Below the pieces are notes generated by a model, which searched no databases, was not told where the DNA came from, and was given only the letters and a program-made list of their open reading frames with translations. From Bacilli bacterium (lineage in GTDB: Bacteria > Bacillota_I > Bacilli_A > RF39 > UBA660): a stretch of DNA of 64,000 nucleotides. This document shows positions 5,600 to 52,086 of this stretch, in pieces. The stretch spans positions 4,264 through 68,263 of the forward strand of contig JAZQIU010000022.1 in the NCBI GenBank assembly GCA_045541255.1, written 5' to 3'. Each line of letters opens with the position of its first letter. Within the stretch, counting starts at the first letter, position 1. The translations under genes were made by a program, and so were the position numbers.

Positions 5600-5612
5600 A
5601 TTTTCCCCTCTC

Positions 5613-7001: not shown

Positions 7002-7003
7002 AC

Positions 7004-7198: not shown

Positions 7199-7217
7199 TT
7201 TTTTCTCCTTTTCTTTT

Positions 7218-7586: not shown

Positions 7587-7942
7587 TATATTTCCCTTTC
7601 CTTTTCTATATCTATTACTTTATTTTTTTCATTTACAAAATATTTAATATTTTTCATAAACTCATCTTGCATATTTTCTTGTTCCATTTCTTCAAAAATA
7701 TCAATAAAATTTTCTGCTTGTATTCCTTTTAACTTAATATATGGTTTTGTAAAATTCACTAAGTTAAAAACATCTATTAGTTCTTCAGATAAATCTTCTA
7801 ATTCTTTTTTCTTATCTATACTATCTAATTGACCACCATCCAGTAATGTTCCAGTACAATCATAAAAACTATAATCAATATGTTCTGTATCATTTGATAT
7901 ATGCAAAAAATTATATTCACTACTAATCACAATTAGATTCAT
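7586..7942 (-). CDS. hypothetical protein, paralogue of 9454-9813
   Basis: MNLIVISSEYNFLHISN...DGGQLDS aligns with MNIIVISEDNKILHITN...FGGVLES of the other copy. The start overlaps the upstream stop (TAATG). Confidence 0.6.
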   Translation of the reverse strand: MNLIVISSEYNFLHISNDTEHIDYSFYDCTGTLLDGGQLDSIDKKKELEDLSEELIDVFNLVNFTKPYIKLKGIQAENFIDIFEEMEQENMQDEFMKNIKYFVNEKNKVIDIEKEREI

Positions 7943-8409
7943 TATATTTCTATCTCCTCCTCTATGTCTTCTTGCTCTTGTTCTTTTTCTTCAAATACTT
8001 GTTTAGCTAACATCAAACCATTTCTAAGATTTTCACTATGTCTAAGATTATATTCAGAAATATTAAGTGCCTCTAATACTGGTTGAATATCACGAGTATA
8101 TCCATATTCGTGATTATACATCTCATCTAAAAACATATCTTTAATAAATTTGTCACCAATTGTATCAGATTTTATTTCAAATTCTAGTTCTTTCTTATGA
8201 CGAGCATGAACTTCTTCTACTTTTGGCAAATCAACTTTTTTTAAATATATACCAGCACCAAAATAAATAAGTTTGTTAGTTTCATTTTCATTTAAACCCA
8301 GCTTTTTTAAACCATTTTTAAATTGTTCATCATTGAAAGCAAACATATAAGGAAGTTCATTAACTTCTTTTTGATGCTTATCTTTTAACAATCTATACTT
8401 ATTAGCCAT
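7942..8409 (-). CDS. hypothetical protein
   Basis: 155-aa ORF with TAATG coupling at both ends. No family recognised with confidence. Confidence 0.55.
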   Translation of the reverse strand: MANKYRLLKDKHQKEVNELPYMFAFNDEQFKNGLKKLGLNENETNKLIYFGAGIYLKKVDLPKVEEVHARHKKELEFEIKSDTIGDKFIKDMFLDEMYNHEYGYTRDIQPVLEALNISEYNLRHSENLRNGLMLAKQVFEEKEQEQEDIEEEIEI

Positions 8410-18943: not shown

Positions 18944-19514
18944 CTGGATTATTCTCCTTTCTCATAGCTTGCTCTACGAATTTTAATAACGCTTTTGTTT
19001 CTTCACTACTCAAAGAATAAGCATCCTCTTTTTTAGGTAATTCTGTTCCAAACTTCTTTCTTGCTCTTGCTAAATCTCTTTGTCTTTGTCGTTCTATTTT
19101 TAATTGTTTTTGTTTTTCTTTTTGTTCTTTTAACTTTTTCTTTGCTTCTATTTTTTGGTGTTTAGATATTTTAGGTTTCTTTCTTTTTTGTTCTTTTTCT
19201 AATCTCTTGTCTTCTTCTGTTTTATAATAAAGAGGTTTTGCAAAATTAATATAATTTCTCTTCCAAAAGAAAATGATTTTTTCAGCATTTAATCCTTGAA
19301 TAGGAATAAATCCAAAAAAGCCTAAAGGCAATGCAATAAAAATTACTATCCATCCTGTTAGATCTGAACCCAAAATAGGATTTAAAAATATATAGATAGG
19401 AACAACAGTAATAACTATTAAAATTGCAAATAACCATTGTCTTATTGTAAAACTATAAAACTTTTCTTTATAATCTTTTATTTCATCATGAATACGAGGT
19501 TCTATTCTATCCAT
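18879..19514 (-). CDS. PrgI-family-like conjugal transfer membrane protein with K/E-rich tail
   Basis: The N-terminus ...KEKFYSFTIRQWLFAILIVITVVPIYIFL plus a second TM resembles the PrgI family (F-G-L-T-x-R-Q motif region). It lies directly upstream of virB4 and overlaps it by 65 nt. Confidence 0.6.
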   Translation of the reverse strand: MDRIEPRIHDEIKDYKEKFYSFTIRQWLFAILIVITVVPIYIFLNPILGSDLTGWIVIFIALPLGFFGFIPIQGLNAEKIIFFWKRNYINFAKPLYYKTEEDKRLEKEQKRKKPKISKHQKIEAKKKLKEQKEKQKQLKIERQRQRDLARARKKFGTELPKKEDAYSLSSEETKALLKFVEQAMRKENNPVEEKSKESGTQEEKEKKNSIS

Positions 19515-19517
19515 ATT

Positions 19518-20336
19518 CTATCCTCCAGTCCATTTTTCTGCTAAGTTACTTGTAATTGAAATTAAAGCCATTAAAAAGCCATTTAAGAACATAATTGCTA
19601 TTAATGTACTGATTGAACCAGCATTAGTTAAAGAACCTAAAGCCATTGAATAAATTGCTGTTGCAACAACAATCATTGATGCTTCAATTCCTAATGCTAT
19701 TGTTGACATAAAAAATCTTTTACATACAGAAGTTCCATCTTCCCAAGCTCCAAGAGCAATAGGAATGGGTGAAAATGCAAAACTTAATATTAATTTACCA
19801 ATGCGGACAAAAACTTGTACTAATATCCCAACAAGTGTTCCCATAAAAGGAATATATAAAATTAATATAATAATAGCCATTAAACCCCTGTCTATCATTC
19901 CACCTGCATTTGATACTAAATCACCCATTTGCTCTGCTAAATCAGGAATTGAAGTTACACTTCCTAATGACGAAGTAACCTTAGTCAATAAATCATTTGA
20001 AATACTCATAATAGAAGATAATAAATGAAATGAATTTTCTAATAACATTTTAAATATAAAAAAACGGATACACATAAAAACTACCCGTTCCCAAGTTAAT
20101 CTTTCAAAATCCATTACTTTCTTTAGAAAATCCATTAAAAAGAATAAAGTTAATAAGCTAAGTCCAATAGGAACAACAACATTATGAAGATTTGAAGCAA
20201 GTCTCCAAATTGATGTTCCTGTTATAATATTCCAATTACATAAACTTCTTATAGTTCCAACAAAATTTCCAAAGTCGATATTAAAACCAAGAACAGAGAA
20301 AGTTATTTTAAATATATTCTCTATTAGTTTATCCAT
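19518..20336 (-). CDS. polytopic membrane protein, VirB6/TrbL-like channel component by position
   Basis: 272 aa with about 6 hydrophobic segments. It sits between the Maff2-like and PrgI-like genes, the usual VirB6-analogue slot. Confidence 0.5.
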   Translation of the reverse strand: MDKLIENIFKITFSVLGFNIDFGNFVGTIRSLCNWNIITGTSIWRLASNLHNVVVPIGLSLLTLFFLMDFLKKVMDFERLTWERVVFMCIRFFIFKMLLENSFHLLSSIMSISNDLLTKVTSSLGSVTSIPDLAEQMGDLVSNAGGMIDRGLMAIIILILYIPFMGTLVGILVQVFVRIGKLILSFAFSPIPIALGAWEDGTSVCKRFFMSTIALGIEASMIVVATAIYSMALGSLTNAGSISTLIAIMFLNGFLMALISITSNLAEKWTGG

Positions 20337-20361
20337 ATATCATCTCCTTGTGATAATTCTT

Positions 20362-20682
20362 TTATAAACCAAATAAGTTCTTAGATAATGCAATTCCAAC
20401 AACCATTCCGCCAGCCATGATTGTCATTAATGCTCTTGATTTTCCTTCAGCATCTTCTCTTTGAAAAGATAAAGCAAACATAACTCCACCTACTAACATT
20501 ACTACTCCACCAATTTTAATCAACCAATCACATACAAAATCGATAAATGTATCAATGCTACTTGTATTACTATTTAAAGCATATACTCTTGTTGCACTTA
20601 ATATAAAACTACATAAAACAATATATAAGACATTTACAACTTTTTTAAAACTACATTTCACACCTGAAATAAGTTTCTTCAT
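20362..20682 (-). CDS. Maff2-family-like small membrane protein
   Basis: 106 aa with a signal/TM, then ...IGGVVMLVGGVMFALSFQREDAEGKSRALMTIMAGGMVVGIA, resembling Maff2 family proteins found next to VirD4 in Firmicutes elements. Confidence 0.55.
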   Translation of the reverse strand: MKKLISGVKCSFKKVVNVLYIVLCSFILSATRVYALNSNTSSIDTFIDFVCDWLIKIGGVVMLVGGVMFALSFQREDAEGKSRALMTIMAGGMVVGIALSKNLFGL

Positions 20683-20706
20683 CTTATTCTCCTTTTCTAT
20701 TAAATT

Positions 20707-22677
20707 TTATAAACTGTCTAATAATTCATCAGTTATAGTTTTATTTGATAATAAAATATCACTATCCATTTTATTTAATTCAAATTCTGTTATAGGACGC
20801 ATTTCTAATTTTTGTACTTTAGCAAAAGGAAGTCCTAATTCATTTAACATCGTTTGATATTTATTCATTTCCTTTGTCATTTCTCTTTGTCGTTTATGAT
20901 CATAATAATTATGTGCTGTTCTTTCTTTATCCCAAGGTTCAAATAATTCATTATATCTAGGATGTTGTTTTAAATTATAAACTTTTGATGTAAAAGGACG
21001 AAGACCAGAAACTAGCAAAATACAATATCCTTCTTTCATTCTTGCAATTTCATCTACCGTTGATAATTCCCTACCTACTATATCCCAATTTGTAGAAGAT
21101 GAGCCTTGTTTAGAAAAAGTTCTTCCTGAACTCTTTTTATACCAAGTTTTCTTTCCCATAAGTAAAGAAATGTATTCTAAAGTCTCTTTACTTCGTGATC
21201 CAAGAAATAAAGTGTAATCGCAACAATCTAACCCTGTTTCCCAATTATCTTTATATACTTTTTTATATTGAGATAAACTCTGTAATCCTATTGTTACACC
21301 ACAATTTAATCCTCTAATATAAGCAAGCATTTCTAAAAAGCGTGGTATTGTTCCTAGCTGACTCCATTCATCCATATAAATTTGACAACCTGATGGTAAT
21401 GAACCATTATGCTGACTTGCATTATAATCTATTATTGTAAATATTTGAGAATATAAGATATTTGCAAGAAAGTTAAAAGTAGAATTGTTTGGACTTGTTA
21501 TTATAAAACAAGCAATTTTTCCTTTATCTCCTGCCTCTCCAATTCTACTTAATTCTAATGTATCAGTAGTAGTCATATTTTCAAGTTCTGCTATATTAAA
21601 TGGTGCAAGTCTAGCTGAAGCAGTCATAATAATTGTTGACATCATTTTTGGAGACGATGCAGACACTTTAAAATGATTCCATTGTTTTATACCGACATTA
21701 TCTGGATCTTTTCTTTCCCAAGCATCAAATAATCTTCCAAGTTGTGAATTACCTTCTTTATCAGGTTCTGCAAGTCTAATTAATTCAAGAATAGTTTTAA
21801 AGTTCTTATCCTTGTCTTCATAATTGAAAATAACATAATACATAATAGCTTGTAGAAAGACCATCTCCGCTTTTTCCCAGAATGGGTCACCTGTATTACT
21901 TTCAATAGTATCAGATTTAGTATTTTGCATTAATACATTAATAAGTGTCATTACATCATCTTCTTGTATTCTTTCTTTTTGAATTTCTTCAGATATTGAA
22001 AGACCATTATTCATGTCAATTTCTCTATATTCTTTTGGTATTCTTCTAATATACATTAATGGATTGAAATTATCAGATTGACTTTTATCTACTAAATTTA
22101 AAACCTTTATATCATAACCATTATTTACTAAAGACATTCCGCAATCTCTCAATAGTTCACCTTTAGGGTCTGTAATGATTAGTGATTCTCCATTTGCACT
22201 TAATATATTAGGTTTAAAATAACTTCTACTTTTCCCAGTCCCAGGTCTTCCAATCAAGGTTACATTTCTATTTCTTTTTGATATTCTCATATTTTTAGAA
22301 AATAATTCTGTTGATGTGAAAATTTGATTATTTTCAAAAACTGGATCTCTAAACTTTTTTATAGTATCAGGAGTTTCCCAATCAGAAGAACCATAAGTAT
22401 TTTCTTGAATATTCTTTTTTATAGATAATTGATAATTAAATATAATTACAAAAGTCATAAAGCCAACAAAAATAGAAATACCAATAGTTTGAGTATTTAT
22501 TATTAATGGTGTATTAAATTTATAGATTGTATTTAACGCCTCATTCAAATAATCTACTTTAAAATCGCCACCATTTTGTTCTACTAAAGTACATACTCTT
22601 AATGTGAAATAAGAGGCGATTAAAACTATTAAAAAAATAAGAACATAATTTGTTTTATGTTCTCGTTTAACGATCAA
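20707..22677 (-). CDS. VirD4/TraG-type type IV coupling protein
   Basis: Two N-terminal TMs and Walker A LIGRPGTGKSRS. Also YMDEWSQLGTIPRFLEMLAYIRGLNCGVTIGLQSLSQ, typical of the TraG/TraD family. Confidence 0.9.
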   Translation of the reverse strand: MIVKREHKTNYVLIFLIVLIASYFTLRVCTLVEQNGGDFKVDYLNEALNTIYKFNTPLIINTQTIGISIFVGFMTFVIIFNYQLSIKKNIQENTYGSSDWETPDTIKKFRDPVFENNQIFTSTELFSKNMRISKRNRNVTLIGRPGTGKSRSYFKPNILSANGESLIITDPKGELLRDCGMSLVNNGYDIKVLNLVDKSQSDNFNPLMYIRRIPKEYREIDMNNGLSISEEIQKERIQEDDVMTLINVLMQNTKSDTIESNTGDPFWEKAEMVFLQAIMYYVIFNYEDKDKNFKTILELIRLAEPDKEGNSQLGRLFDAWERKDPDNVGIKQWNHFKVSASSPKMMSTIIMTASARLAPFNIAELENMTTTDTLELSRIGEAGDKGKIACFIITSPNNSTFNFLANILYSQIFTIIDYNASQHNGSLPSGCQIYMDEWSQLGTIPRFLEMLAYIRGLNCGVTIGLQSLSQYKKVYKDNWETGLDCCDYTLFLGSRSKETLEYISLLMGKKTWYKKSSGRTFSKQGSSSTNWDIVGRELSTVDEIARMKEGYCILLVSGLRPFTSKVYNLKQHPRYNELFEPWDKERTAHNYYDHKRQREMTKEMNKYQTMLNELGLPFAKVQKLEMRPITEFELNKMDSDILLSNKTITDELLDSL

Positions 22678-23875
22678 TTAGTTGTTCCTCTTCTAATTCT
22701 ATTGAAGGAGCAATATCTAAAGTATTCTCCTTTTCTTCAGCAAATTCATTAGCCTCTCTTAACAAATCTGCTGTTGAAGACTTTTTTTTAACTTCTTCCG
22801 CCATTTCTTTAGTATCTTTTTCTCTTACATAAGCATTTATAGTTCCATCAGAATTATGAATAGCAACAAAATCTTTACCTTTATATGTGTTTTTAAATGC
22901 ACTAAAATCATTATCGTTATTTAACTTAACACTAATTATATTATTGCTATTACTTTCTGCTTCTATTTCTTTAGCTCCACTTGCACCATATTCTTTTATA
23001 GGTTTGTCAAGAGGAGCAAATTTTTTATATTCTTCTAAATCGTCTGAATTAATCGCTACAATTACCTCACCATTAGGCATTACTTTAGCACCATGTGATT
23101 TTAATTCAAATAATTGTTCTCTTATTTCACAATACTCTGATTTAGATATTTTTTGATGACAGAAGTTTTTAGTATAATCTCTAACAAAACAAGAACCATA
23201 GTCAGTTCCTATTTCTAATTGTTCTGGATATATATTTATATCTCTTGAAACAATCTTACTATCTTTATCTATTAAGCCATTATCATTTATTTCATCAAGA
23301 TCTTCAGATATAGTTCTTTGTGTTCTCTTCTTTTCTAATATTTCTAACTGTTCATTAAAGAAAGCAAGATGACTTTTATTACACAAAATAATATATCTTT
23401 CATCAGGATACTTTAAATTATCTTCTTTAGAACGCTCTCTAAATTTATCTGTTTTTCTTTGACTAAGCCATCCTAAAAAAGGAACATTTTTAAAAACTTT
23501 TCTTCTTTCATTCCATTTTTCAAATTTTATTTCATTCTTTGCAAGTTTTTCTTGTTTATGCAACGATTGATTTTTTCCTTCATCCCCATCTGGTTGCATC
23601 TTTTTTACACCAACTAATATTCCATTTTCCCTCGCATTTGTAATTAACTCTTTTGCTTCCGCTCTAGTTAAAGGAGATGATACAGCAAGTTCTTTTGTTG
23701 CACCATCTTTCTTTAAGGCTCTTAATGATGAAGAAAAATGTTTTTGATAATACTTTCTAGCTTTAGATGTTGCTTTTGCCATTAGTCTTGCTAATATTCC
23801 TGTGCTTTTAGTTGATGCTCGTACTGCTCTTTCTGATGCGTGTTCTAAATCACTTTTTGCATTTCCATCAGTCAT
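22667..23875 (-). CDS. PcfB-like (DUF3801-type N-terminal domain) protein
   Basis: N-terminal ...SLRALKKDGATKELAVSSPLTRAEAKELITNARENGILVGVKK resembles the PcfB/DUF3801 family that habitually precedes VirD4. It overlaps the coupling-protein gene by 11 nt. Confidence 0.5.
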   Translation of the reverse strand: MTDGNAKSDLEHASERAVRASTKSTGILARLMAKATSKARKYYQKHFSSSLRALKKDGATKELAVSSPLTRAEAKELITNARENGILVGVKKMQPDGDEGKNQSLHKQEKLAKNEIKFEKWNERRKVFKNVPFLGWLSQRKTDKFRERSKEDNLKYPDERYIILCNKSHLAFFNEQLEILEKKRTQRTISEDLDEINDNGLIDKDSKIVSRDINIYPEQLEIGTDYGSCFVRDYTKNFCHQKISKSEYCEIREQLFELKSHGAKVMPNGEVIVAINSDDLEEYKKFAPLDKPIKEYGASGAKEIEAESNSNNIISVKLNNDNDFSAFKNTYKGKDFVAIHNSDGTINAYVREKDTKEMAEEVKKKSSTADLLREANEFAEEKENTLDIAPSIELEEEQLIDR

Positions 23876-36530: not shown

Positions 36531-37439
36531 CTAGTTATTTTCTTCATTGTACATTCTTGCTTTAGAATCTTTTTGCATCTCGTATCCATACTCAAATATG
36601 TAAGACATACTAAATATAATTAAAATTTCTAATATACTCATCAATTCAAATGGACTATTTCCATCAGATAGTCCTAGTAATGAATTAAATATTACTCCTG
36701 ATATTGGTGTTATTATAATTAATGCAATCATTAAATATGAAATCTTTTTTATAAAAGTTACATTATCCAAAGTAAATGGTGTATTATTATTTTTTATATT
36801 ATTGAATAACTTCTCAACATAACTTAATATAACTATCATGATAAAAATATCTACTAATAAAAATACAAGTCCTGCTTCAATATATCCAATTATTTTTACA
36901 TTAGAATTAGTATTAAACATTTCAATAACATCATAATCTTCATCTTCAATATCAAATTCACCAACAATAATATCATAAATTTCAATTTTATTTTCATCTA
37001 TTATTTTGATATTTTCCGTTTTAAATCCTATTTCATTATTCTTGATTTCAACATTATTAATTACATAAGGAACTAATATCATTGCTAATATAATAAATGG
37101 TATTGCAACCTTTAAAACAATTGCACCAATTTTTCCTATCATACTAATTACATTACTTAATGTTTTAACTTCTTTTTGTTTCTTTTCATTAAACTTAACA
37201 ACATTCATAATAATCTCTTCATCTAATGAAGAAATATCTGTCATATCAGTATGAACAAGATCATTCAATTTACAATTAAATATTTTACATAATTCTAAAA
37301 TATTATTCATTTCTGGATATGATTCGCCATTCTCCCATTTTGATACTGATTGTCTTGTTACATTTACTTTTTCTGCTAATTGTTCTTGCGACATTTTTTT
37401 ATTTTTTCTTATTTGTCTTAAATTATCTCCAAACTTCAT
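36531..37439 (-). CDS. XRE-family HTH regulator fused to a multi-pass membrane domain (DUF2975-like)
   Basis: MKFGDNLRQIRKNKKMSQEQLAEKVNVTRQSVSKWENGESYPEMNNILELCKIFNCKLNDLV is followed by about 4 TM segments. The preferred start (37439) lies 8 nt after AAAGGAG. Confidence 0.8.
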   Translation of the reverse strand: MKFGDNLRQIRKNKKMSQEQLAEKVNVTRQSVSKWENGESYPEMNNILELCKIFNCKLNDLVHTDMTDISSLDEEIIMNVVKFNEKKQKEVKTLSNVISMIGKIGAIVLKVAIPFIILAMILVPYVINNVEIKNNEIGFKTENIKIIDENKIEIYDIIVGEFDIEDEDYDVIEMFNTNSNVKIIGYIEAGLVFLLVDIFIMIVILSYVEKLFNNIKNNNTPFTLDNVTFIKKISYLMIALIIITPISGVIFNSLLGLSDGNSPFELMSILEILIIFSMSYIFEYGYEMQKDSKARMYNEENN

Positions 37440-37551
37440 TAGATTAACTCCTTTCGTATATAAGTTTAATATTTTATATGTTTTTTTTACATCAATTTTC
37501 AGTTGCATTTCATTTTTGCAACTCTAAATTTACATTAATATTATAACATAA

Positions 37552-38418: not shown

Positions 38419-39195
38419 TTGATAGCTTTGAAAAAATTTAAACAAAAAACAAACTATTATCAAAGTTATTCTGATGAATTTGTTAAATCTAAGAATCAAA
38501 ATATTAAATTAAAAGAAAATTTTAAGTGGAAACATACTAATTTTTTCTACATTGTATTTTCAAATATTATATATTTTATATTCATGATCTTTGGATTAAT
38601 TTATTGCAAATTGATATTAAGAGTAAAGTTTGTTAATAAAGATATAATTAAATCGGATAAAGGATTTTATATATTTGCTAACCATACACAAATGATTGGT
38701 GATGCTTTTATTCCAGCTTTAACAATTTATCCTAAGAAAACAAAAGTGATTGTTAATCCTGCTAATTTAGGAATACCAATTTTAGGTAATTTCCTTCCTA
38801 TGTTAGGTGCCTTACCTATTCCAGATGATATTCACAAAAAAATGGAATTATTTGATGCAATGAAATATTATATTTCTAAAAAGCAATGTGTTGTAGTATA
38901 TCCTGAAGGACATTTGTGGCCTTGGTGTACAGAAATAAGACCATTTGAAAAAACTGCATTTAGATTTCCAGCAGCATCAAATGTTCCTTCGTTTTGTCTA
39001 ACTACTACATATCAAAAAAGTAAATATTTTAAAAAACCGAAAATTACTGTTTATTGTGACGGACCATTTTACTGCGATAATACTTTAACCGAAAAAGAAA
39101 ATGCTAAAAAATTACAGGAACAGATTTATAACAAAATGTTAGAAAGAAGTAAAAATAACAATTTTAAATATATCAAATATCAAAAAAAAGATTAA
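38419..39195 (+). CDS. PlsC-family (lysophospholipid/glycerol-phosphate) acyltransferase-like membrane protein
   Basis: N-terminal TM, FANHTQMIGDAF (H-x-n-D box, spacing atypical) and VVYPEGHLWP (FPEG-like box). TTG start; the alternative TTG at 38428 has better spacing from AGAGG. Confidence 0.6.
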   Translation: MIALKKFKQKTNYYQSYSDEFVKSKNQNIKLKENFKWKHTNFFYIVFSNIIYFIFMIFGLIYCKLILRVKFVNKDIIKSDKGFYIFANHTQMIGDAFIPALTIYPKKTKVIVNPANLGIPILGNFLPMLGALPIPDDIHKKMELFDAMKYYISKKQCVVVYPEGHLWPWCTEIRPFEKTAFRFPAASNVPSFCLTTTYQKSKYFKKPKITVYCDGPFYCDNTLTEKENAKKLQEQIYNKMLERSKNNNFKYIKYQKKD

Positions 39196-39227
39196 AAAAA
39201 TAATCTTTTTTCTTTAGTTAAAATTAG

Positions 39228-40094
39228 CTATATTTCTTTTTTTAAACCAGCAATATCACTTAATTCAAATGTATAATCAAGTTTCTTTTTATAAACTTTC
39301 TCATACATTTCTTTTTTTTGAGTATAATCTATATTAGACATTTCAATACTGTTTGTTTTTATAGTTTTATTTTTATCAGGTAATATAGGCTTTAAAATAT
39401 GAATTTTATATAAAACTTCAAAAAATTCATCATTGTCATCAATATTTGTATCAATCATTTCAACAAAACAAGATATAATTGGAACATTAAATTCATAAGC
39501 AAATTGATATGCTCCTCTCTTTAATGGTCTAGGTTTTCTATAATTAAACCACATTTCTTCTTCTGGATATATTAATACGATATTACCTTTATCTAAAGCT
39601 TTCTTTAATTCTTGACTAAATGTTTTAATTAAATACTCTGGACTTTTACTTATTGGGATAACATCCATATAATTCATTAAAAATCCTAAATTACCTGACA
39701 TCGCTAAATTGGTGTCTTGAATTACTGTGTACATTTTTCTTTTTAATAATTTTTCAACTACTTTTCTTTCACATAAACTATCTAATGGATTAAAGTGATT
39801 AGCAGTAATAATTGCACCATGACTTAAATCTAGTTCTTTTAAATTCTCTTCTCCACATATTGCTATTTGTTTATACATTTTTTTAGCCATTTGACTTACG
39901 ATTAAATTAGCTTCTTTATTTTTTATGTTATATGTAGATTTTAATTTATTTTGATAAAATTTATCTAAATATTTTTTTATTTCATCACTGTTGATATTTG
40001 GATCATCAACTTCTACTTTTTTATTCAATTCATTATTTAAAATATTTGTTTTGATATTTTCAATAACTTTAGATTTACTACCACCTATTATCAT
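39228..40094 (-). CDS. PlsC-family acyltransferase (HX4D)
   Basis: ITANHFNPLDSL (HX4D) and LIYPEEEMW (PEG-like box). It is the last gene of the GT8/ACP operon. Confidence 0.65.
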   Translation of the reverse strand: MIIGGSKSKVIENIKTNILNNELNKKVEVDDPNINSDEIKKYLDKFYQNKLKSTYNIKNKEANLIVSQMAKKMYKQIAICGEENLKELDLSHGAIITANHFNPLDSLCERKVVEKLLKRKMYTVIQDTNLAMSGNLGFLMNYMDVIPISKSPEYLIKTFSQELKKALDKGNIVLIYPEEEMWFNYRKPRPLKRGAYQFAYEFNVPIISCFVEMIDTNIDDNDEFFEVLYKIHILKPILPDKNKTIKTNSIEMSNIDYTQKKEMYEKVYKKKLDYTFELSDIAGLKKEI

Positions 40095-40096
40095 AT

Positions 40097-41053
40097 TTAC
40101 AATCTACTTTCTTTTCCACTTTCAAAAAGATTTAAAAAAGTATTTTTACTATTAGCAATATCTAAACCATTTTTAATCATGAGTTCCATATGTTTACTAT
40201 CTTCTTCTCTATCTTTATCAGAATAATTTTCTTTAATACTTTTTATCTCTTCATAATATTCAACTATCTTTGCATATTTCCAAAAATATTCTTCATAATC
40301 TACATTATCATAATGCCATGGCTTATAAAATAAGTTGTAATGAATTAATGACGGATTATCAACTGGTTTTACCCCAGGAACTGGCATTGTGTCCCAAGTA
40401 TTATCTAAATAATGTATTTTACCCTTACACATTGCATTTAAATAATCTTGATCTGGTGCTATACAATTAATATGATATTTATTAAATAAATATAAGAATC
40501 TTTCATCTAATTTAACTTCCCTTAGTTTTTTTGAATTTAGTAGAAGGACACCAGAATTAATATAATAATGTTTATCCACTCCAACAGCATTTTCTATATA
40601 ATAAGCAAGTGGTTCAACATCAACTACAGAAGTATCTCTTACTGCACCTATTAAATTATCTTTCAAATCAATATTATATAATTTACTAATATCACCAGGT
40701 ACTACTATATCACTATCTAAGTAAATACATTTATCATATTCATTAAACATTTCTGGTATAAATAATCTAAAGAAAATAGTTAGAGTAAAGAAATCTGCTC
40801 TTAATCTTGTTCCCATCTTATCTGTTATACATTCTAATCTTTTATCCATTTCGTAAAATTCTATTCTTACATAATCAGTTTCTAATCTTTTTAATTTATT
40901 TTTGTTTTCTTCTGTTAAATTTTCATGTATAACATGAATCTTATAATCATAATCCTTACTTGCATTTTCAATTAATGATTTAACTGCAACTGCTAAAAAT
41001 TTAGCGTAGCCATCATCTATTGTAAAAAATATTGGTATTAATTGTTTTTTCAT
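40097..41053 (-). CDS. glycosyltransferase family 8
   Basis: IYLDSDIVVPGDISKLYNIDLKDNLIGAVRD, YINSGVLLLNSKKL, PDQDYLN and IHYNLFYKPWH form the GT8 (RfaJ/GspA-type) motif set. Confidence 0.85.
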   Translation of the reverse strand: MKKQLIPIFFTIDDGYAKFLAVAVKSLIENASKDYDYKIHVIHENLTEENKNKLKRLETDYVRIEFYEMDKRLECITDKMGTRLRADFFTLTIFFRLFIPEMFNEYDKCIYLDSDIVVPGDISKLYNIDLKDNLIGAVRDTSVVDVEPLAYYIENAVGVDKHYYINSGVLLLNSKKLREVKLDERFLYLFNKYHINCIAPDQDYLNAMCKGKIHYLDNTWDTMPVPGVKPVDNPSLIHYNLFYKPWHYDNVDYEEYFWKYAKIVEYYEEIKSIKENYSDKDREEDSKHMELMIKNGLDIANSKNTFLNLFESGKESRL

Positions 41054-41859
41054 ACTACTTTTCCTTTCAATTCTAGATATTTATCTAATATATCATCTAA
41101 TTCATATGTATTTAATACTTCGTGTAATTTATCTATATGCCACGGTTTTATAGATTGTGTTTTAAATGGAAATAATTTAAATGTTGTTGAAAAATGTCTA
41201 AACACAGTATCAGATTTTATACATTTTTGTTCATTATATTTGCTTTTTAAAATTAATTTGTTTTTTGCGAATTTATTTAAAGCATGTTGATCTGGCAATA
41301 ATAATTCTTTTTCTTTACACATCTTTCTACATTTTTCAAATAACCTTGTTTCTTTTATCAATTGTAAATTTATAAGTAATACTCCTGAATTTATATAATC
41401 TCTTTTAAATATGTTTTTTCGATAAAACCAGCTACCATAACGATCGAATACTCCTGCATATTCTATATTAGTTAAATCTATGTTATAAAATTCATCAAAG
41501 GATTTTAAGCAAACCACATCATTATCTAAATATAAGATTTTATCTGGTAATTCACTGATTTTATCTGCATATAATCTTAGCATACAATATGGGGTAAATC
41601 TTGTTTGCAAATTTGCAGTTGGAGGATCATTAAAGAAATATTCGTCAGTATTTATTTTGTTTATCGAACTATTTTTATTTACTTTCTTAATTTCTTTTTC
41701 CAACAATTTTATTATATTATCACTAACTGGTTGTTTATCTCCATATTTCATCGTCATTACATAAAAATTAATTTGAGAATTTGTGTTTTTTAGAATAGAT
41801 AATATAGAAATAATTAATCCATCTTCTATATTTTTATCTCCACAATAAAGTATATTCAT
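41050..41859 (-). CDS. glycosyltransferase family 8
   Basis: LYLDNDVVCLKSFDEFYNIDL, YINSGVLLINLQLI, PDQHALN and IKPWH. It has a 4-nt ATGA overlap with the next gene. Confidence 0.8.
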   Translation of the reverse strand: MNILYCGDKNIEDGLIISILSILKNTNSQINFYVMTMKYGDKQPVSDNIIKLLEKEIKKVNKNSSINKINTDEYFFNDPPTANLQTRFTPYCMLRLYADKISELPDKILYLDNDVVCLKSFDEFYNIDLTNIEYAGVFDRYGSWFYRKNIFKRDYINSGVLLINLQLIKETRLFEKCRKMCKEKELLLPDQHALNKFAKNKLILKSKYNEQKCIKSDTVFRHFSTTFKLFPFKTQSIKPWHIDKLHEVLNTYELDDILDKYLELKGKVV

Positions 41860-41862
41860 ACA

Positions 41863-42324
41863 CTACTCCTTATCACTTAAACAGATTGAGTAAATATAAT
41901 CTTTATATTTTCCTTCAATATATTTATTTTTTAATTTAACAGTATCAACTTTTTTTAATCCATAACTAATTCCATATCCTAACATTTTTAGATAACTTTC
42001 TTTTTTTGTCCAAATTCTAGTAAAATCTAATTCTTTATTTTTAGATTTATCTATAATTGCTAATTCATTGTTTGTAAAATGTTTTAAAACATTCGGATAG
42101 TATTTTAAACTTTGTATATCTACTCCAACATCTTTATTCGATATTACACATATACAAATATTTTTGGTATGACTAATACTAAAATGAATATTAGAATATT
42201 CTTTTAAAAATGGTTTACCATAGTCGTTATAATTTATACTATAGTCATATATTAAATGTTCTGATAATGCCTTTTTTAATAACTCCCCGCTATGAATATT
42301 TTCTTCTATATAAATCTTATACAT
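41863..42324 (-). CDS. 4'-phosphopantetheinyl transferase (short Sfp-like)
   Basis: FSISHTKNICICVISNKDVGVDIQ and WTKKESYLKMLG, the PPTase superfamily motifs. It overlaps the carrier-protein gene by 8 nt. Confidence 0.75.
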   Translation of the reverse strand: MYKIYIEENIHSGELLKKALSEHLIYDYSINYNDYGKPFLKEYSNIHFSISHTKNICICVISNKDVGVDIQSLKYYPNVLKHFTNNELAIIDKSKNKELDFTRIWTKKESYLKMLGYGISYGLKKVDTVKLKNKYIEGKYKDYIYSICLSDKE

Positions 42325-42562
42325 TTTTTTCTATATAACTTATAATATCTTCAACTGTTTGAAAACATTTAATTTCTTCATCTTTAATACTTATTTTATA
42401 TTTCTTTTCAAATTCAGCTATTAAATTAACTATATCAAGCGATTCTAATTCTAAATCATTTAGTAAATTTGATTCTAATCTTATATTTTCCTTTGGAAAT
42501 TCTGTTATCTCTGATATTATTTCAATTACTTCATTTTTTAAATTTCTATTATTTTCTTTCAT
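42317..42562 (-). CDS. acyl carrier protein (dedicated)
   Basis: LLNDLELESLDIVNLIAEFE carries the phosphopantetheine-attachment (D/E)SL motif. The preferred start MKENNRN lies 7 nt after GAGGAG. Confidence 0.8.
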   Translation of the reverse strand: MKENNRNLKNEVIEIISEITEFPKENIRLESNLLNDLELESLDIVNLIAEFEKKYKISIKDEEIKCFQTVEDIISYIEKNV

Positions 42563-44132
42563 TATTGTACTCCTCACCAATTTTATTTCTAAGAATTTTT
42601 TTATTGTTATTCTTTATAAACTCACTTGTTCTCAATTTTACATAACTTATTTGACGATTTTTTGGAACAGATAAATTATATTTTTTTATAATGTTATCAA
42701 AATATGCTTGATTACCAAAATAATCATCCTCTGGATATATTTCAGCTATTATTCGGTTATCTTGTTCATATACCACTATTTCACAAATCCCTTTATTTTG
42801 TGAGATTTTCTTTTCTATTTCTTCAGGTGAAATATTTTCACCATTAGATAAAATTATTAAATTCTTTTTTCTACCTGTTATATATAAAAATCCATTTTCA
42901 TCTATATAACCTAAATCTCCCGTATGAAAACTTTTTTTGTTTAGCACCATATTAGTTGATTTTTTATCTTTATAATAACCTAGCATTACATTATCTCCAG
43001 TAACAACTATTTCTGAATCAACTATCTTCACATTACACCCTTTTATAAGTTTACCTACACTACCATCTCGATAATCCTTATTTCTATTTACTGCAACTAC
43101 AGGAGAACATTCTGTAATACCATATCCATTTAAAATTTCTATTCCAATACTTCTAAACCATTTAACATACTTCTGATTTAAAAAAGCACCACCACAAATT
43201 ATTTTATTTAAATTTCCTCCAAAGTTATCATGAATAGATTTAAATAAAGTCTTTCTTACATCTATACCGACTTTTAAAAGTCCGTTACTAATTTTTATAC
43301 TATTTTTCAATACTTTATCTTTTTTAGTTCTTCTAGCAGTTACCCATATTTGTTTATAAAAATTTTCTATAAATGCTGGAACTACAACCAAAGTATCAGG
43401 TTTAGCTATTTGCATCTCTTGTTGTATTCTTCTTAAACTACTATTAATAAATACTGTATAACCATAATAATAAGCCATTATTACACTTGTTATAAGTCCA
43501 AAAGTATGATGAAATGGTAACAAACATAATGTTGATCCTTCTAGTAAGAAATTACTACAAGAAGCATAAACATCATAAGCAATATTCTTTTGACTTAACA
43601 TAACACCCTTATTTGCTCCTGTTGTTCCAGATGTAAAAAATATAGCTGCACATTCATCATCATTTATTTTATGTTTATTATCGTATTGTTTTCCTTCGTT
43701 AATTAACATATCCATTTCTAAAAAGTGATGTTTTTGAATTTTTATATTCAAATCGTCCGTATATTTATTTGAATAAAACATAACATCGCTATCACTATTT
43801 TTTAATAGTTGTTTTAAGGTTTCATTATCTAAATCTTTATCAATTATAACTGCAACATTACCACTTATTATAATAGCGAAAAATAACACAATATATTGAT
43901 AACTATTTTCACCTACTATCGCAATATGTTTCTTTCTATAATTATAATTTAAATAATTACTTAAAAATATTACTTCATCATAAAATTCTTGATATGTTTT
44001 ATTTATTACTTTTTCACTTTCAAAAAATGAAAATGCAATATTACTATTATTTCTTTTTATTGTTAAATCCATTATTTCTTTTAAGTTATTCACTTTATGA
44101 TGTTTGTAATAATCATATGACCTATTCTTCAT
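42549..44132 (-). CDS. AMP-forming acyl ligase (fatty-acyl-AMP/CoA ligase family)
   Basis: IFFTSGTTGANKGV (AMP-binding motif), GYGITE and TGDLGYIDENGFLYITGRKKNLIILSNGENISPEEIE. The preferred start MKNRSYDYY lies 5 nt after AGGAGTG. Confidence 0.85.
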   Translation of the reverse strand: MKNRSYDYYKHHKVNNLKEIMDLTIKRNNSNIAFSFFESEKVINKTYQEFYDEVIFLSNYLNYNYRKKHIAIVGENSYQYIVLFFAIIISGNVAVIIDKDLDNETLKQLLKNSDSDVMFYSNKYTDDLNIKIQKHHFLEMDMLINEGKQYDNKHKINDDECAAIFFTSGTTGANKGVMLSQKNIAYDVYASCSNFLLEGSTLCLLPFHHTFGLITSVIMAYYYGYTVFINSSLRRIQQEMQIAKPDTLVVVPAFIENFYKQIWVTARRTKKDKVLKNSIKISNGLLKVGIDVRKTLFKSIHDNFGGNLNKIICGGAFLNQKYVKWFRSIGIEILNGYGITECSPVVAVNRNKDYRDGSVGKLIKGCNVKIVDSEIVVTGDNVMLGYYKDKKSTNMVLNKKSFHTGDLGYIDENGFLYITGRKKNLIILSNGENISPEEIEKKISQNKGICEIVVYEQDNRIIAEIYPEDDYFGNQAYFDNIIKKYNLSVPKNRQISYVKLRTSEFIKNNNKKILRNKIGEEYNNERK

Positions 44133-44146
44133 TTGAACACTCCTAA

Positions 44147-44944
44147 TCAATTAAATATTTCACATGAATATTTATTATAAAACTTATTTAAGACACCTTT
44201 ATATTTATCATTCCATGGTTTATTCTTACCACAATAATGAATTATTTTACTATTTTTATCTATCCACTCATATGTGTAAGCATTTACCATCTTTTCTGAT
44301 ACATTATATATTTTTGTATCTATCAACTTAATTCTGCCTGCGTACACTTTTGACAACACATCTTGATCTGGTAAACAAAATTTGTGTTTATTCAATCTAA
44401 TATATTCATAAATGTCTTTTTCTTTAATTTTAACTTTTCTAATTTCATTTAAATTTATCATTAACACACCAGAATTGATATATGGATCTTTTTTAGATAA
44501 TCCTAATCTTATATCATTAAATAATTTAACTATCCCTTTAACATGTGTTGCTCCTGCATAACAGAAACGATTTATATTTAAATTATATAATTCCATTATA
44601 TCTTTATCCACTATTATATCAGGATCTAAATATAATACCTTATTCACATTCTTTGGTAAATAAAGATGTGCAAATAATCTATAATACATGGTTACAGGGA
44701 ATTGCTTAGAAACAGGAGCATTAGCAAGTTTACTATCATCAATTTTTATATCAATTATTGTAATTAAATCTGAATTTACTTTTTCTCTAATATAATCAAT
44801 ATCCTTTTTTTCTAAATCTTTGTTCATAATATATACATTAGTTTTATAACTATTATTCTTTATTAAAGAATATAACATTACGATTAATGGATTAATATAT
44901 TTTTTATTTATTGTAACTAATATATTAATTGGTGATTTTTTCAT
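44147..44944 (-). CDS. glycosyltransferase family 8
   Basis: LYLDPDIIVDKDIMELYNLNI, YINSGVLMINLNEI, PDQDVLS and IHYCGKNKPW. It is the first gene of the operon, with RBS GGGAGG. Confidence 0.8.
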   Translation of the reverse strand: MKKSPINILVTINKKYINPLIVMLYSLIKNNSYKTNVYIMNKDLEKKDIDYIREKVNSDLITIIDIKIDDSKLANAPVSKQFPVTMYYRLFAHLYLPKNVNKVLYLDPDIIVDKDIMELYNLNINRFCYAGATHVKGIVKLFNDIRLGLSKKDPYINSGVLMINLNEIRKVKIKEKDIYEYIRLNKHKFCLPDQDVLSKVYAGRIKLIDTKIYNVSEKMVNAYTYEWIDKNSKIIHYCGKNKPWNDKYKGVLNKFYNKYSCEIFN

Positions 44945-48098: not shown

Positions 48099-48117
48099 AA
48101 AGAATCATTACGATTCT
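48096..48117 (-). terminator. rho-independent terminator of the two-component operon
   Basis: The minus strand reads AGAATC-GTAAT-GATTCT followed by TTTTTT. The 5' arm lies within the last codons and stop of the kinase gene. Confidence 0.6.
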
Positions 48118-49379
48118 TTTTTCTTCTTTGGTATGCTAAACTCAATCGTTAAGCCACCATTATTATTGTTATATGCTTTGATTTTTCCCTTATGAAGAAG
48201 TATATTTTCTTTTACTATTGATAAACCCAATCCTGAATTTTTTCTTGAACTGTCAGTTGTGAATAAAGGATTAAAAATCTTATCAATTATTTCTTCTTTA
48301 ACACCACAACCATTATCTGCTATTATGAAATTAACATTATTTTTATCATTTTTTACTTTTATTGTAATTTTTCCGTTTTCTGAAAGAAATTTTACACTAT
48401 TAGATATAATATTGGAAAACACTCTTTTTATCTTAGTCATATTTATTTCAAGTACTTCTTTTTTACAATTCTCATCAACAACAATTTCAAATTTAATATC
48501 ATTTAATTCTAATTCATTCTTGTAATCTAATTCTATTTGTTTTATTAAATCATTTATACTTATATCTACAAACTTAATATCATTGTCTGAATGATTTATT
48601 AAATAATCATCAAAATTACTTGCTATTTCTTTTATATGATTAGATTTAATGTTTATAATATCATTATATTTTTTTATAGTTCTTAAATCTTTTTCATTTT
48701 TTATCAAATCTGAATATCCAATAATAGATGTTAAAGGGGTTTTTATATCATGAGATATACTTGCAATTATTCTATTTTTTTCTTCATTATTTTTATCTAA
48801 TGATTCTGTTAAAGTGACAAATTCATTTTGAATTACATCGATATCACTATTTAATTTATTTCTTGTTGGTTTTCTACCATATTTATAATTTTTCATATCC
48901 TCTATTAATTTAGATATTGGATTCACAATAGCTTTATTAGAAAAGAAATATACTACAACTAATATAATTATAAGTAAAAATAATTGAATTTTGAAAAAAT
49001 CAAAAAAAGTTCCCCAACCAGTAGAATTTTGGTTAAAATAACCCTTTACTAGATAATGTTCGTTTCCTACCTTAATTAAATCTGATATAAATAAAAGATC
49101 TGTATGTTCATTTTCTGACTCTTTTACAAGTTCATTATTGAAAGCAGTTATGGAATAATTTATTTTCTTTTCATCCAATACATTTATCAATTCTTCAATA
49201 GAATTATAATCTTGTGAAACAATTTCATTTTTTAATTTTAATGAATCGTCATAAACCTTCTGAATTGATGGTTTTAAATAACCCATTCCCCAAACAATTA
49301 AGCAAAGTAAGTTAAAAATAAGTGTAACAAATAGTCCTAATATTATTTTTCTATGAATTGATTTACTATTTTTAAACAT
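48108..49379 (-). CDS. sensor histidine kinase
   Basis: Two TMs, H-box SHDIKTPLTSI, IADNGCGV (G1) and SGLGLSIV (G2). The preferred start MFKNSKS forms an ATGTTTAA overlap with the regulator's stop. Confidence 0.9.
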   Translation of the reverse strand: MFKNSKSIHRKIILGLFVTLIFNLLCLIVWGMGYLKPSIQKVYDDSLKLKNEIVSQDYNSIEELINVLDEKKINYSITAFNNELVKESENEHTDLLFISDLIKVGNEHYLVKGYFNQNSTGWGTFFDFFKIQLFLLIIILVVVYFFSNKAIVNPISKLIEDMKNYKYGRKPTRNKLNSDIDVIQNEFVTLTESLDKNNEEKNRIIASISHDIKTPLTSIIGYSDLIKNEKDLRTIKKYNDIINIKSNHIKEIASNFDDYLINHSDNDIKFVDISINDLIKQIELDYKNELELNDIKFEIVVDENCKKEVLEINMTKIKRVFSNIISNSVKFLSENGKITIKVKNDKNNVNFIIADNGCGVKEEIIDKIFNPLFTTDSSRKNSGLGLSIVKENILLHKGKIKAYNNNNGGLTIEFSIPKKKKES

Positions 49380-50067
49380 TAGTTTCTCCATTTACAAATT
49401 TATATCCATAACCCCATATAGTTATAATATACTTTGCATCTTTATCAAGTTTATCTCTTAAATTTTTAATATTTACAGCTATTGTTCCAATATCTCCGTA
49501 ATCACTACCCCATACAGATTCAAATATTTGTTCTTTTGATAAAGCAATATCTTTATTTTTAACTAAATAACTTAATAATTCAAATTCTTTTGTTGTAAGT
49601 TCAACTACTTTATCATCTTTTTTTGCAATAAATTTGTTTGGATTTATTGATATTTTACCAACAACAATTTCATCAGCATCATTTGTTATTATTTGCTCTC
49701 TTATTCTGTCATTCATTCTTAAATGTGCTTTAACTTTAGCAACCAATTCTTTATTATTAAATGGTTTAGTAATATAATCATCTGCTCCGATCTCATATCC
49801 AACTATTTTATCCACAACATCATTTTTTGCTGATACAAAGACAATTGGACAAGAAACGGAAGATCTTATTTTTGCACAAAGTTCTGTTCCACTTATTTCA
49901 GGCATCATTATATCTAAAAGAATCAAATTGTATTTTTTTAAATTAGGATCATCTATTACTAATTTAGGATTATTGATTATAGATACTTCAATTTTTTCTT
50001 TTTCCAAAACTAATTTCATTAATTCAGAAATATCTTTATCATCATCTACTATAAGTATTTTTGCCAT
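49372..50067 (-). CDS. OmpR-family response regulator
   Basis: MAKILIVDDD...LILLDIMMPEISG (receiver Asp) and C-terminal winged helix ...TIWGYGYKF. Confidence 0.9.
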   Translation of the reverse strand: MAKILIVDDDKDISELMKLVLEKEKIEVSIINNPKLVIDDPNLKKYNLILLDIMMPEISGTELCAKIRSSVSCPIVFVSAKNDVVDKIVGYEIGADDYITKPFNNKELVAKVKAHLRMNDRIREQIITNDADEIVVGKISINPNKFIAKKDDKVVELTTKEFELLSYLVKNKDIALSKEQIFESVWGSDYGDIGTIAVNIKNLRDKLDKDAKYIITIWGYGYKFVNGETNV

Positions 50068-51085: not shown

Positions 51086-52015
51086 TTATACATTAACACT
51101 AAACAATTTTTTCTTATAATGTTTTGGTATTAAAAATTTCATCTTACTAGATACTTTTATATTATATTCATTACCAAAATATTCAAATTTTTCACCATCT
51201 ATACACCAATTCTTATCAAGTTTATCGATAAATTTTATAGAAACATCATGTGCTTTCAATGAAATAATATCATCAGGATTTTTGCCGAATATATATTTTA
51301 AAAAGTTTTTAATAAAATCTTTTTTTGAACTGGATTTACATAATAATACTTCTATCCTTTCATCATTTAAACAAACATCTTTGTGAAAGTTACTAATACC
51401 TGCAATATGATCTGCATTGGAAACCATTATTAAAGAATATAACCCATTTATTTTTATTCCGTCAACTTCAACCTCTGCATTATATCTTTTCATTTTATTA
51501 AAAATCTCTGTTATTCCTTCTTTAATATAAGCCCTATAACCAGACTTCTTTTTATCTTCACTCTTTGTTTCATACGGGATATTCATAAGTTTACCCATAC
51601 CAACTACATAAACAAATGGATTATCATTTATTGTACCAATATCATAATCCTTTTCCACACCATCTAATGCCAAATTTATATTGTCAACAGGATTTTTTCC
51701 ATATCCAAGCATTGTTGCGACATCATTGCATGTCCCACTCGGTAAAGGGCATATTGTTAATTTATTCTTTCTATAATAATTTCCTCTTATAACCTCATTT
51801 AATGTTCCATCTCCACCTATTGAGAAAACAATATTATAATTTTTGGCATTTGTTATTATTTCAGTTGCATGATTTTTATATTTTGTAGCTAAAACATCAA
51901 CTTTGTATCCATTATCCTTTAAAATATCTTGATAGATTGCTAAAACATCTTCACTAATAGCTTTACCACTATTTGGATTATAGATAATTAGACACTTTTT
52001 TATATCATCTTTCAT
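51086..52015 (-). CDS. diacylglycerol-kinase-family lipid kinase (DagK/YegS type)
   Basis: LIIYNPNSGK and SIGGDGTLNEV (GGDGT motif). The preferred start MKDDIKK lies 6 nt after AAGGTG. Confidence 0.85.
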   Translation of the reverse strand: MKDDIKKCLIIYNPNSGKAISEDVLAIYQDILKDNGYKVDVLATKYKNHATEIITNAKNYNIVFSIGGDGTLNEVIRGNYYRKNKLTICPLPSGTCNDVATMLGYGKNPVDNINLALDGVEKDYDIGTINDNPFVYVVGMGKLMNIPYETKSEDKKKSGYRAYIKEGITEIFNKMKRYNAEVEVDGIKINGLYSLIMVSNADHIAGISNFHKDVCLNDERIEVLLCKSSSKKDFIKNFLKYIFGKNPDDIISLKAHDVSIKFIDKLDKNWCIDGEKFEYFGNEYNIKVSSKMKFLIPKHYKKKLFSVNV

Positions 52016-52086
52016 ATCTCGCACCTTCTTCATCTAATAAACCAAGTTAATTATAAAAAAATATTATTAAAAATCAGTTATTAAAT

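Follow-up and report, generated by a model that had tools for sequence, protein, structure and literature searches.

We examined a 64,000-nucleotide (nt) stretch of DNA from a Bacilli bacterium (GTDB RF39; UBA660), positions 4,264-68,263 of the forward strand of contig JAZQIU010000022.1 in assembly GCA_045541255.1; this whole stretch is called the window below. It carries an eight-gene cluster that encodes three glycosyltransferases of family GT8 (GT8a, GT8b and GT8c), an acyl-AMP-forming ligase of the ANL superfamily, an acyl carrier protein (ACP), a phosphopantetheinyl transferase (PPTase) and two acyltransferases with a PF01553 domain (AT1 and AT2). An initial annotation of the window had listed these open reading frames (ORFs) and read them as a pathway in which the ligase, ACP and PPTase serve PlsC-type acyltransferases and GT8 enzymes that make an acylated glycolipid. 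All eight ORFs lie where that annotation placed them, and every domain that it named scores above the Pfam gathering score, which we used for domain calls alongside NCBIfam models with their own cut-offs (Table 1). The cluster is made of two modules, a four-gene core (AT2, GT8b, GT8c and AT1) and a feeder trio (ligase, ACP and PPTase). GT8a is a lineage-specific extra.

Table 1. Genes of the cluster and selected neighbours, in window coordinates
Feature	Position	Strand	Domain match and remarks
GT8a	44147-44944	-	PF01501, 128.6 bits (cut-off 24.3); retaining GT8; first gene of the operon
Acyl-AMP-forming (ANL) ligase	42549-44150	-	Pfam AMP-binding, 191.8 bits, plus C-terminal domain
ACP	42317-42580	-	Pfam PP-binding, 43.4 bits
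Sfp-type PPTase, 153 aa	41863-42324	-	Pfam ACPS PF01648, 43.8 bits (cut-off 25)
GT8b	41050-41859	-	PF01501, 83.8 bits (cut-off 24.3); core member
GT8c	40097-41053	-	PF01501, 167.2 bits (cut-off 24.3); core member
AT1	39228-40094	-	Acyltransferase PF01553, 53.8 bits; core member
AT2	38419-39195	+	PF01553, 27.1 bits (cut-off 23); core member
XRE-type protein	36531-37508	-	C-terminal DUF2975 membrane domain
Small ORF, 67 aa	45049-45252	-	Two CxxC pairs; no Pfam match
Histidine kinase and OmpR-type response regulator	48108-50067	-	
DgkB-like soluble diacylglycerol kinase	51086-52033	-	DAGK_cat, 93 bits

The cluster genes are densely packed, in the window and in relatives, with starts and stops that overlap or abut. 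The ACP gene overlaps the stop codon of the ligase; its true start is probably the internal ATG at 42562, residue 7 of the TTG-start ORF, because related proteins are 74-80 amino acids (aa) long, and the gene would still overlap the ligase stop from there. AT2, which the initial annotation had drawn as divergent, is instead convergent with AT1: the two genes lie tail to tail with their 3' ends 32 nt apart. GC content ranges from 22 to 30% in the window and is about 24% near the cluster, which does not differ in GC from the remainder of the window, and coding is nearly all on the minus strand. An Rfam scan gave no match in the window. A promoter scan of the 24% GC window was uninformative (65 promoter-like sites against 73 expected), as was a scan of the window for consensus terminators, which found none in DNA so AT-rich.

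The set of genes recurs in distantly related bacteria. A profile of the ligase, scanned against one genome per species, returned 80 loci, which we searched with the window proteins. The order ligase, ACP, PPTase, GT8b, GT8c, AT1 with a convergent AT2 is found complete or nearly so at about 18 loci of other species, at 38-63% protein identity. Some of these lie in metagenome-assembled genomes labelled as uncultured gut Bacilli, Bacillales, Tenericutes or 'Clostridium sp. CAG:609' (23-26% GC where computed), others in genomes of the same kind labelled Candidatus Saccharibacteria (41-49% GC). The isolate Erysipelotrichaceae bacterium OPF54 (48% GC) has the seven genes within unrelated flanks and with all of them, AT2 included, on one strand, and a prevalent gut species has the same seven genes with overlaps of 4-8 nt and an upstream flank that varies among strains. 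The arrangement is not a product of chance, because the set recurs at the roughly 18 loci of other species, in OPF54 and in this gut species. The cross-genome comparison that the initial annotation had called for therefore finds seven of the eight genes co-conserved across remote lineages. A counterpart of GT8a was seen solely in one of the loci searched (L009, 39% identity). Across the ligase family, an ACP gene lies directly downstream of the ligase in 40 of the 73 loci with room for one, followed by a PPTase gene in 19. At more distant Clostridia loci the ligase alone persists of the cluster genes.

Within the order of the window, the two modules occurred only together in the genomes sampled. 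Among 121 genomes of this order, an orthologue of the ligase was detected in nine and AT1 in exactly those nine. A clear ACP is essentially restricted to the same nine (no ACP match at all in about 100 genomes, and nothing but weak matches in about 10 others). Thus nine genomes have trio and core, 112 have neither, and none has one without the other. The initial annotation had left room for a ligase, ACP and PPTase unconnected to the GT8 genes; trio and core occur together in nine of nine carriers. We also tried a same-genus genome without the cluster (G090) as an empty-site comparison, and rejected it as not syntenic and too diverged, with 69% DNA and 52% protein identity in one shared gene.

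Outside this order, the core can occur without the trio. Of 399 sampled genomes from the class, 29 (about 7%), belonging to seven families, carry a member of the AT1 family, and 26 of these lie outside the window's order. The core ranges there from all four genes (loci L093, L097, L098 and L099) to a minimum of GT8c and AT1 (L094-L096). Beside the four-gene core of L098 (G233:C31, 4907-9813) are two ANL ligases that are 24-29% identical to the window ligase, one fused to a PP-binding domain (662-aa ORF), while a separate ACP gene comes after the other; they look like an independent solution for feeding the core.

The core also travels on plasmids. A tblastn search with AT1 matched 22 plasmid records, nearly all from brewery Lactobacillaceae and one from Roseburia. 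Plasmid pPECL-8 of Pediococcus claussenii (NC_017019.1) encodes, in order, a glycosyltransferase, an opposite-strand ABC transporter, an acyltransferase, a GT8 enzyme and a lysophospholipid acyltransferase (LPLAT). These include orthologues of AT2 (39% identity), GT8b (44%), GT8c (42%) and AT1 (42%), each over at least 97% of the protein. The transporter, which the record names only an ABC transporter ATP-binding protein, we take to be horA. The horA-flanking genes and the window thus share full-length orthologues of all four core genes, lying together, with the last three in the order AT2-GT8c-AT1. Unlike the window, pPECL-8 has horA between the GT8b-like gene and the others and no ligase, ACP or PPTase among the annotated genes within about 7 kb of the match, and there is no ABC transporter in or adjoining the window cluster. 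The Roseburia sp. 831b plasmid carries an LPLAT, a glycosyltransferase, a GT8 enzyme and a second LPLAT, full-length and at 45-54% identity to the core proteins (AT2 45%, GT8b 54%), with no ligase or ACP. In beer spoilers, the genes surrounding horA keep a conserved order, are transcribed in beer at more than three times the level of horA and have been called 'membrane modification genes' (Pittet et al., PMC3765258), and two glycosyltransferases and two acyltransferases are among the plasmid genes specific to beer-spoiling L. brevis (Feyereisen et al., PMC6533708). Neither study names a product of the horA-flanking genes.

How might the core obtain its acyl groups? Of the 26 core carriers that lie outside the window's order, 25 have PlsX, and all 26 have an ACP encoded elsewhere in the genome. 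One of them (G280) has an orthologue of the cluster ligase, on a different contig from the core and together with PlsX; the 25 that lack the orthologue have PlsX in 24 cases and an ACP in every case. Among the 24 other genomes with both trio and core, PlsX was found in one (G129), and KAS, the ketoacyl-ACP synthase of the type II pathway for fatty acid synthesis (FASII), is absent from 22. The window's genome has neither, so PlsX is absent from 24 of 25 trio carriers; in the window's own order, none of the nine genomes checked (the window's genome and the eight other trio carriers) has it. OPF54 encodes two PlsY and no PlsX. Every sampled core carrier therefore has an ACP, and nearly all have exactly one recognizable charging route other than FASII, either PlsX or the trio, as expected if the core acyltransferases use acyl-ACP. 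Given this complementarity of trio and PlsX among carriers of the core, the most likely role of the trio is to provide acyl-ACP in genomes that lack the PlsX route. A related prediction, that the trio accompanies the core only in genomes without FASII, was wrong: 21 of the 26 core carriers outside the order also lack KAS, and it is PlsX that separates the groups.

The proteins of the trio are compatible with this role. The ligase has the ANL fold, a readable core motif (TSGTTGANKG), a C-terminal lysine block (NKKILRNK) and an adjoining cognate carrier protein, features that characterize acyl-ACP synthetases, and is predicted to load fatty acids onto the adjoining ACP. Its best NCBIfam matches are MenE and long-chain fatty-acid ligase models, all under their cut-offs, and sequence searches of the PDB placed it at equal distance from MenE, FadD13, luciferase and AasS and did not separate CoA ligases from ACP synthetases. 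The ACP carries its phosphopantetheine attachment serine within LELESLD and scores 55-63 bits with NCBIfam ACP models, just below their cut-offs. The PPTase has readable GVDI and WTKKESYLK motifs, and its best NCBIfam matches are of the Sfp type (AusB at 75 bits, HetI and AcpT), which rank above the AcpS models and are all below the equivalog cut-offs.

The two acyltransferases of the core differ in sequence from standard PlsC enzymes. AT1 is predicted to be a soluble or peripheral acyltransferase of the LPLAT/PlsC superfamily; no hydrophobic segment was seen in its sequence. It has the HX4D block NHFNPLD and the signature IYPEEEMWFNYRKPRP, and these motifs are kept in 19 sequences (the window AT1 and 18 orthologues). 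AT2, which is conserved at 13 other loci, has a visible N-terminal hydrophobic segment, a predicted membrane anchor, and a variant catalytic block, NHTQxxGD, with one residue more than HX4D. Both retain the catalytic histidine and aspartate. In enzymes that acylate glycerol-3-phosphate (G3P) or lysophosphatidic acid (LPA), the arginines of blocks II and III (EGTR) bind phosphate. Both lack the block II (xxxR) and block III (EGTR) arginines of PlsC-type 1-acylglycerol-3-phosphate acyltransferases, with IPISK and YPEEEMW in AT1 and LPIPD and YPEGHLW in AT2, and score below the TIGR00530 cut-off of 103 bits (40 and 22 bits), whereas standard PlsCs of a relative in the same order (G021) have VDR and FPEGTR or FPEGTT. 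The missing phosphate-binding arginines argue for an acceptor without a phosphomonoester. An AlphaFold (AF2) model of AT1 (pLDDT 85.8), searched with Foldseek, matched the mycobacterial acyltransferase PatA best by E-value (1.5e-6; TM-scores 0.41-0.48, about 10% identity), although the TM-score was higher with PlsC (5kym; 0.47/0.54).

The three GT8 enzymes, of a retaining family, have the DXD motif for metal and nucleotide sugar, YLDPDIIV in GT8a, YLDNDVV in GT8b and YLDSDIVV in GT8c, and GT8a is paralogous to both GT8c (phmmer, 1e-17) and GT8b (1e-13). The closest solved relative of GT8c is LgtC (E 4.7e-22). At two loci of the class sample GT8c and AT1 are fused in one ORF (590 aa in L093 and 607 aa in L095) that has both PF01501 and PF01553 domains, which is good evidence that the two enzymes would act on the same molecule. 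Directly downstream of the fusion in L095 (G397:C2, 4059-4667, minus strand) is a gene of the CrtO family (glycosyl-4,4'-diaponeurosporenoate acyltransferase, PF18927). CrtO acylates the sugar of a glycolipid, and the L095 protein would be a second acyltransferase acting on a glycolipid sugar in the same operon. In the literature on GT8 enzymes and glycolipids or lipoteichoic acid (LTA), we found no paper that ties a GT8 enzyme to glycolipid synthesis.

What else does the host have for making lipids? Its assembly is 1.37 Mb in 57 contigs and 92.7% complete, and at this completeness no KAS, PlsX, PlsY or DegV/FakB was found in it. RF39 bacteria lack fatty-acid synthesis, and a Fak route has been suggested for them (Nayfach et al., PMC6784871). 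The cluster holds the genome's only PP-binding protein, its only PPTase and ANL ligase, both of its PF01553 enzymes and all three of its GT8s. Elsewhere are two CdsA, PgsA, a second CDP-alcohol transferase and three LtaS-like genes (about 700 aa). The DgkB-like kinase, 6 kb from the cluster, would recycle diacylglycerol from the three LtaS-like enzymes or phosphorylate scavenged diacylglycerol. The only three genes of the GT4 type (Glycos_transf_1) in the genome lie together on another contig (G000 contig C18, about 16475-23378; 411, 641 and 427 aa); these large proteins resemble enzymes of wall-polymer synthesis more than the small GT4 synthases that make glycolipids in other Firmicutes.

Across the order, PlsY is absent from all 121 genomes, and PF01553 matches occur in 79 and are missing from 42. 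Many of these enzymes are PlsCs of about 200 aa, paired about 2.3 kb apart. Each of the eight other trio carriers shows three to five PF01553 matches, where the cluster has two. In G021 (L087, G021:C1:248000-262000), two PlsC genes overlap a gene for a FadD-type long-chain acyl-CoA ligase between them (ORFs 5323-5895, 5892-7625 and 7534-8208), followed by a 3-hydroxyacyl-CoA dehydrogenase gene. This CoA-based operon, which we examined in G021 only, may be the usual phospholipid route of the order from scavenged fatty acids. We did not find it in the window's genome, where it may sit in the unassembled 7%.

The reading that we favor, and hold to be somewhat more probable than its alternatives taken together, is that trio and core build an acylated membrane glycolipid from scavenged fatty acids and sugars. 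The observed gene content and modularity fit it, and co-conservation, the co-occurrence of trio and core and the complementarity with PlsX support the scheme of the initial annotation. The ligase would adenylate a free scavenged fatty acid and transfer it to the private ACP, on the 4'-phosphopantetheine arm of this carrier, which the cluster's own Sfp-type PPTase would have converted to the holo form. Acyl-ACP would thus be formed in an organism without fatty-acid synthesis or a Fak/PlsX route. Membrane-anchored AT2, GT8b, GT8c and soluble AT1 would then act at the cytoplasmic face of the membrane, where the core would use acyl-ACP and nucleotide sugars to make an acylated, alpha-glycosylated lipid. 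With two acyl and two sugar transfers, a diglycosyl-diacyl lipid or a sugar-acylated glycolipid would be the likeliest product; in this lineage, a third sugar would come from GT8a.

Such a pathway has partial parallels in several known systems. One is Aas of E. coli (2-acylglycerophosphoethanolamine acyltransferase / acyl-ACP synthetase), which follows the same logic: ACP is charged with a free fatty acid by an ANL enzyme, and a PlsC-type domain then moves the acyl group to a membrane lipid. In the window, in contrast, the parts are separate genes, the ACP and PPTase are private and two GT8s are added; the scores with the Aas model NF006386 (124 bits for the ligase, 34 for AT1 and 23 for AT2) are far from its cut-off of 1221, and the acceptor is probably not a lysophospholipid as it is for Aas. 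The cluster would amount to Aas-like, acyl-ACP-dependent lipid acylation joined to glycolipid glycosyltransferases. The reaction predicted for the ligase, from fatty acid, ATP and holo-ACP to acyl-ACP, is that of Vibrio harveyi AasS (PDB 8hsy), but the relation is a generic ANL one: the match (E 5.9e-26, about 80 residues) is exceeded by those to MenE, FadD13 and luciferase. The carrier that AasS charges is the housekeeping AcpP.

PatA shares its superfold with the AT1 model and acylates a glycolipid sugar next to glycosyltransferase steps, namely the mannose 6-OH of phosphatidylinositol mannosides, using acyl-CoA; AT1, unlike PatA, is placed in PF01553 by Pfam. Two consecutive cytoplasmic glycosyltransferases and a possible alpha-linked diglycosyl lipid recall the glycolipid-anchor systems of Firmicutes (LafA/LafB, BgsA/BgsB and YpfP), and the LtaS-like genes of the window's genome would need such an anchor. 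Those enzymes are GT4 or GT28, not GT8 (reviewed in PMC3089915), and are not coupled to acyltransferases or an ACP. The initial annotation had likened the trio to DltA and DltC without DltB or DltD. As in Dlt, a ligase and a small carrier protein are encoded side by side, and there is indeed no DltB (MBOAT) or DltD gene in the cluster. The likeness to DltA did not hold, in that the ligase matches fatty-acid and MenE-type models instead; moreover, the score with the DltC model is 23.9 bits, where the cut-off is 68, and the downstream enzymes are PlsC-type. Since the trio provides the genome's only ACP, PPTase and ligase, it is more than an accessory system of the DltA/DltC kind.

Several points weigh against the glycolipid reading. 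The ligase is no nearer to known acyl-ACP synthetases than to CoA ligases, and in about half of its more distant family members no ACP is encoded alongside. The genomes G129 and G280 are two exceptions with both charging routes, and the carriers represent few independent lineages, so that relatedness inflates the trio and PlsX counts. The fold search with the AT1 model ranks sugar-acylating PatA and LPA-acylating PlsC nearly equal and does not separate the possible acceptors. Proteins and polysaccharides are also substrates of GT8 enzymes, and the solved relatives include GlyE and WbbM. Lastly, we infer the substrate of the ligase, the ACP as its acceptor, acyl-ACP as the donor, the acceptor of the acyltransferases, the sugars and the glycolipid product.

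Could the cluster instead make bulk glycerolipid? AT2 and AT1 would then be G3P and LPA acyltransferases that use acyl-ACP from the trio to form phosphatidic acid, and the GT8s would make the glycosyl-diacylglycerol anchor of LTA. The two CdsA, PgsA, the three LtaS-like enzymes and the DgkB-like kinase all need phosphatidic acid or diacylglycerol, yet the genome has no PlsX, no PlsY, no PF01553 enzyme outside the cluster and no PlsC-FadD-PlsC operon to provide it, and a diglycosyl-diacylglycerol needs just the two acyl and two sugar transfers that the core offers. With assembly completeness at 92.7%, however, the missing operon may be unassembled, and relatives are better supplied: the other trio carriers have extra PF01553 enzymes, which in G021 form the separate operon. 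No PF01553 enzyme at all was found in 42 genomes of the order (CdsA and PgsA were not looked for in those 42). In core-only carriers with PlsX, and in OPF54 with its two PlsY, the core comes on top of canonical lipid synthesis. Together with the absence from AT1 and AT2 of the phosphate-binding arginines that relatives' standard PlsCs keep, these points make bulk glycerolipid synthesis an unlikely function. That the cluster is the organism's sole route to phosphatidic acid was our first idea, and we downgraded it on the extra PF01553 enzymes of relatives, the PlsY of OPF54 and the missing arginines. A bolder possibility, which we consider distinctly unlikely, is that in gut bacteria of this kind, having lost fatty-acid synthesis, Fak, PlsX and PlsY (and in this genome the PlsC-FadD-PlsC operon as well), the cluster is the only lipid-assembly machinery and that its non-canonical acyltransferases and GT8s build the main membrane lipid while bypassing phosphatidic acid, for example by adding acyl groups to a glycerol that carries a sugar. 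Gene transfer would have spread this chemistry, which in beer-spoilage lactobacilli would harden the membranes against hop acids.

The product would not be a free membrane glycolipid if the GT8s and acyltransferases modify a lipid-linked intermediate of a teichoic acid or polysaccharide, or a surface protein. WbbM acts in polysaccharide synthesis and GlyE in the glycosylation of a serine-rich protein, the genome encodes large surface proteins along with the three LtaS-like genes, and the horA-flanking homologues have been loosely termed 'phospholipid or cell wall biosynthesis' genes (PMC3765258). Yet the core has no conserved neighbor that is a flippase, polymerase, priming transferase or target protein, and the flanks differ from lineage to lineage. 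The GT8c-AT1 fusion and the membrane anchor of AT2 also fit a membrane-lipid substrate, and to our knowledge every characterized member of the PlsC superfamily that draws on acyl-ACP is a lipid enzyme. We therefore judge a wall-polymer or protein target to be quite improbable. It is more improbable still that the trio serves fatty-acid salvage for the whole cell and that its position beside the GT8 and acyltransferase genes has no functional meaning. A ligase-ACP pair, with or without a PPTase, does occur at many Clostridia loci without GT8 or acyltransferase neighbors, and OPF54, with PlsY but no PlsX, may need acyl-ACP for an ordinary PlsC. Such independence is hard to square with nine genomes of the order that have both modules and 112 that have neither, or with the same gene order in lineages from 23% to 49% GC; moreover, AT1 and AT2 are the only acyltransferases that the genome offers to use acyl-ACP.

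Genes for an XRE regulator, a cold-shock protein, an RDD protein, a Zn-peptidase and HtrA are the neighbors of the cluster. The small ORF of Table 1, which is zinc-ribbon-like, sits between the genes for HtrA and GT8a, some 100 nt upstream of the operon. The histidine kinase and response regulator genes lie further upstream on the same strand as the cluster, separated from it by the RDD, Zn-peptidase and HtrA genes and the small ORF. At four loci (L011, L013, L042 and L043) homologues of the two are found upstream or downstream of the ligase gene at no more than about 100 nt, and at four others (L009, L024, L029 and L041) the distance is up to about 6-9 kb. The XRE-type protein, which has a helix-turn-helix (HTH) domain, is encoded 1 kb from AT2. 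HTH genes that match its N-terminal part adjoin the core in four unrelated carriers of the class sample (L096-L099); this adjacency may be chance, XRE domains being very common.

What is new here is the combination. The enzyme families are all known, and the four-gene core had already been noticed in brewing microbiology. In the literature we found no paper on the core coupled to a private, acyl-ACP-generating trio, and no characterized pathway that matches the cluster, as the initial annotation had supposed. Uncultured gut Bacilli with small genomes, such as RF39, have been assumed to use the Fak pathway (PMC6784871). Of its components, we detected PlsY in none of the 121 genomes of the window's order, PlsX in none of the nine checked and DegV/FakB not in the window's genome, the one checked for it; a minority of the sampled genomes has a private trio and core instead. 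The core is widespread, also travels on plasmids and is among the most consistent genetic markers of beer spoilage. The complementarity of trio and PlsX leads to a testable prediction, that the core enzymes use acyl-ACP, and cultured OPF54 and the brewery lactobacilli are tractable systems in which the lipid may be found.

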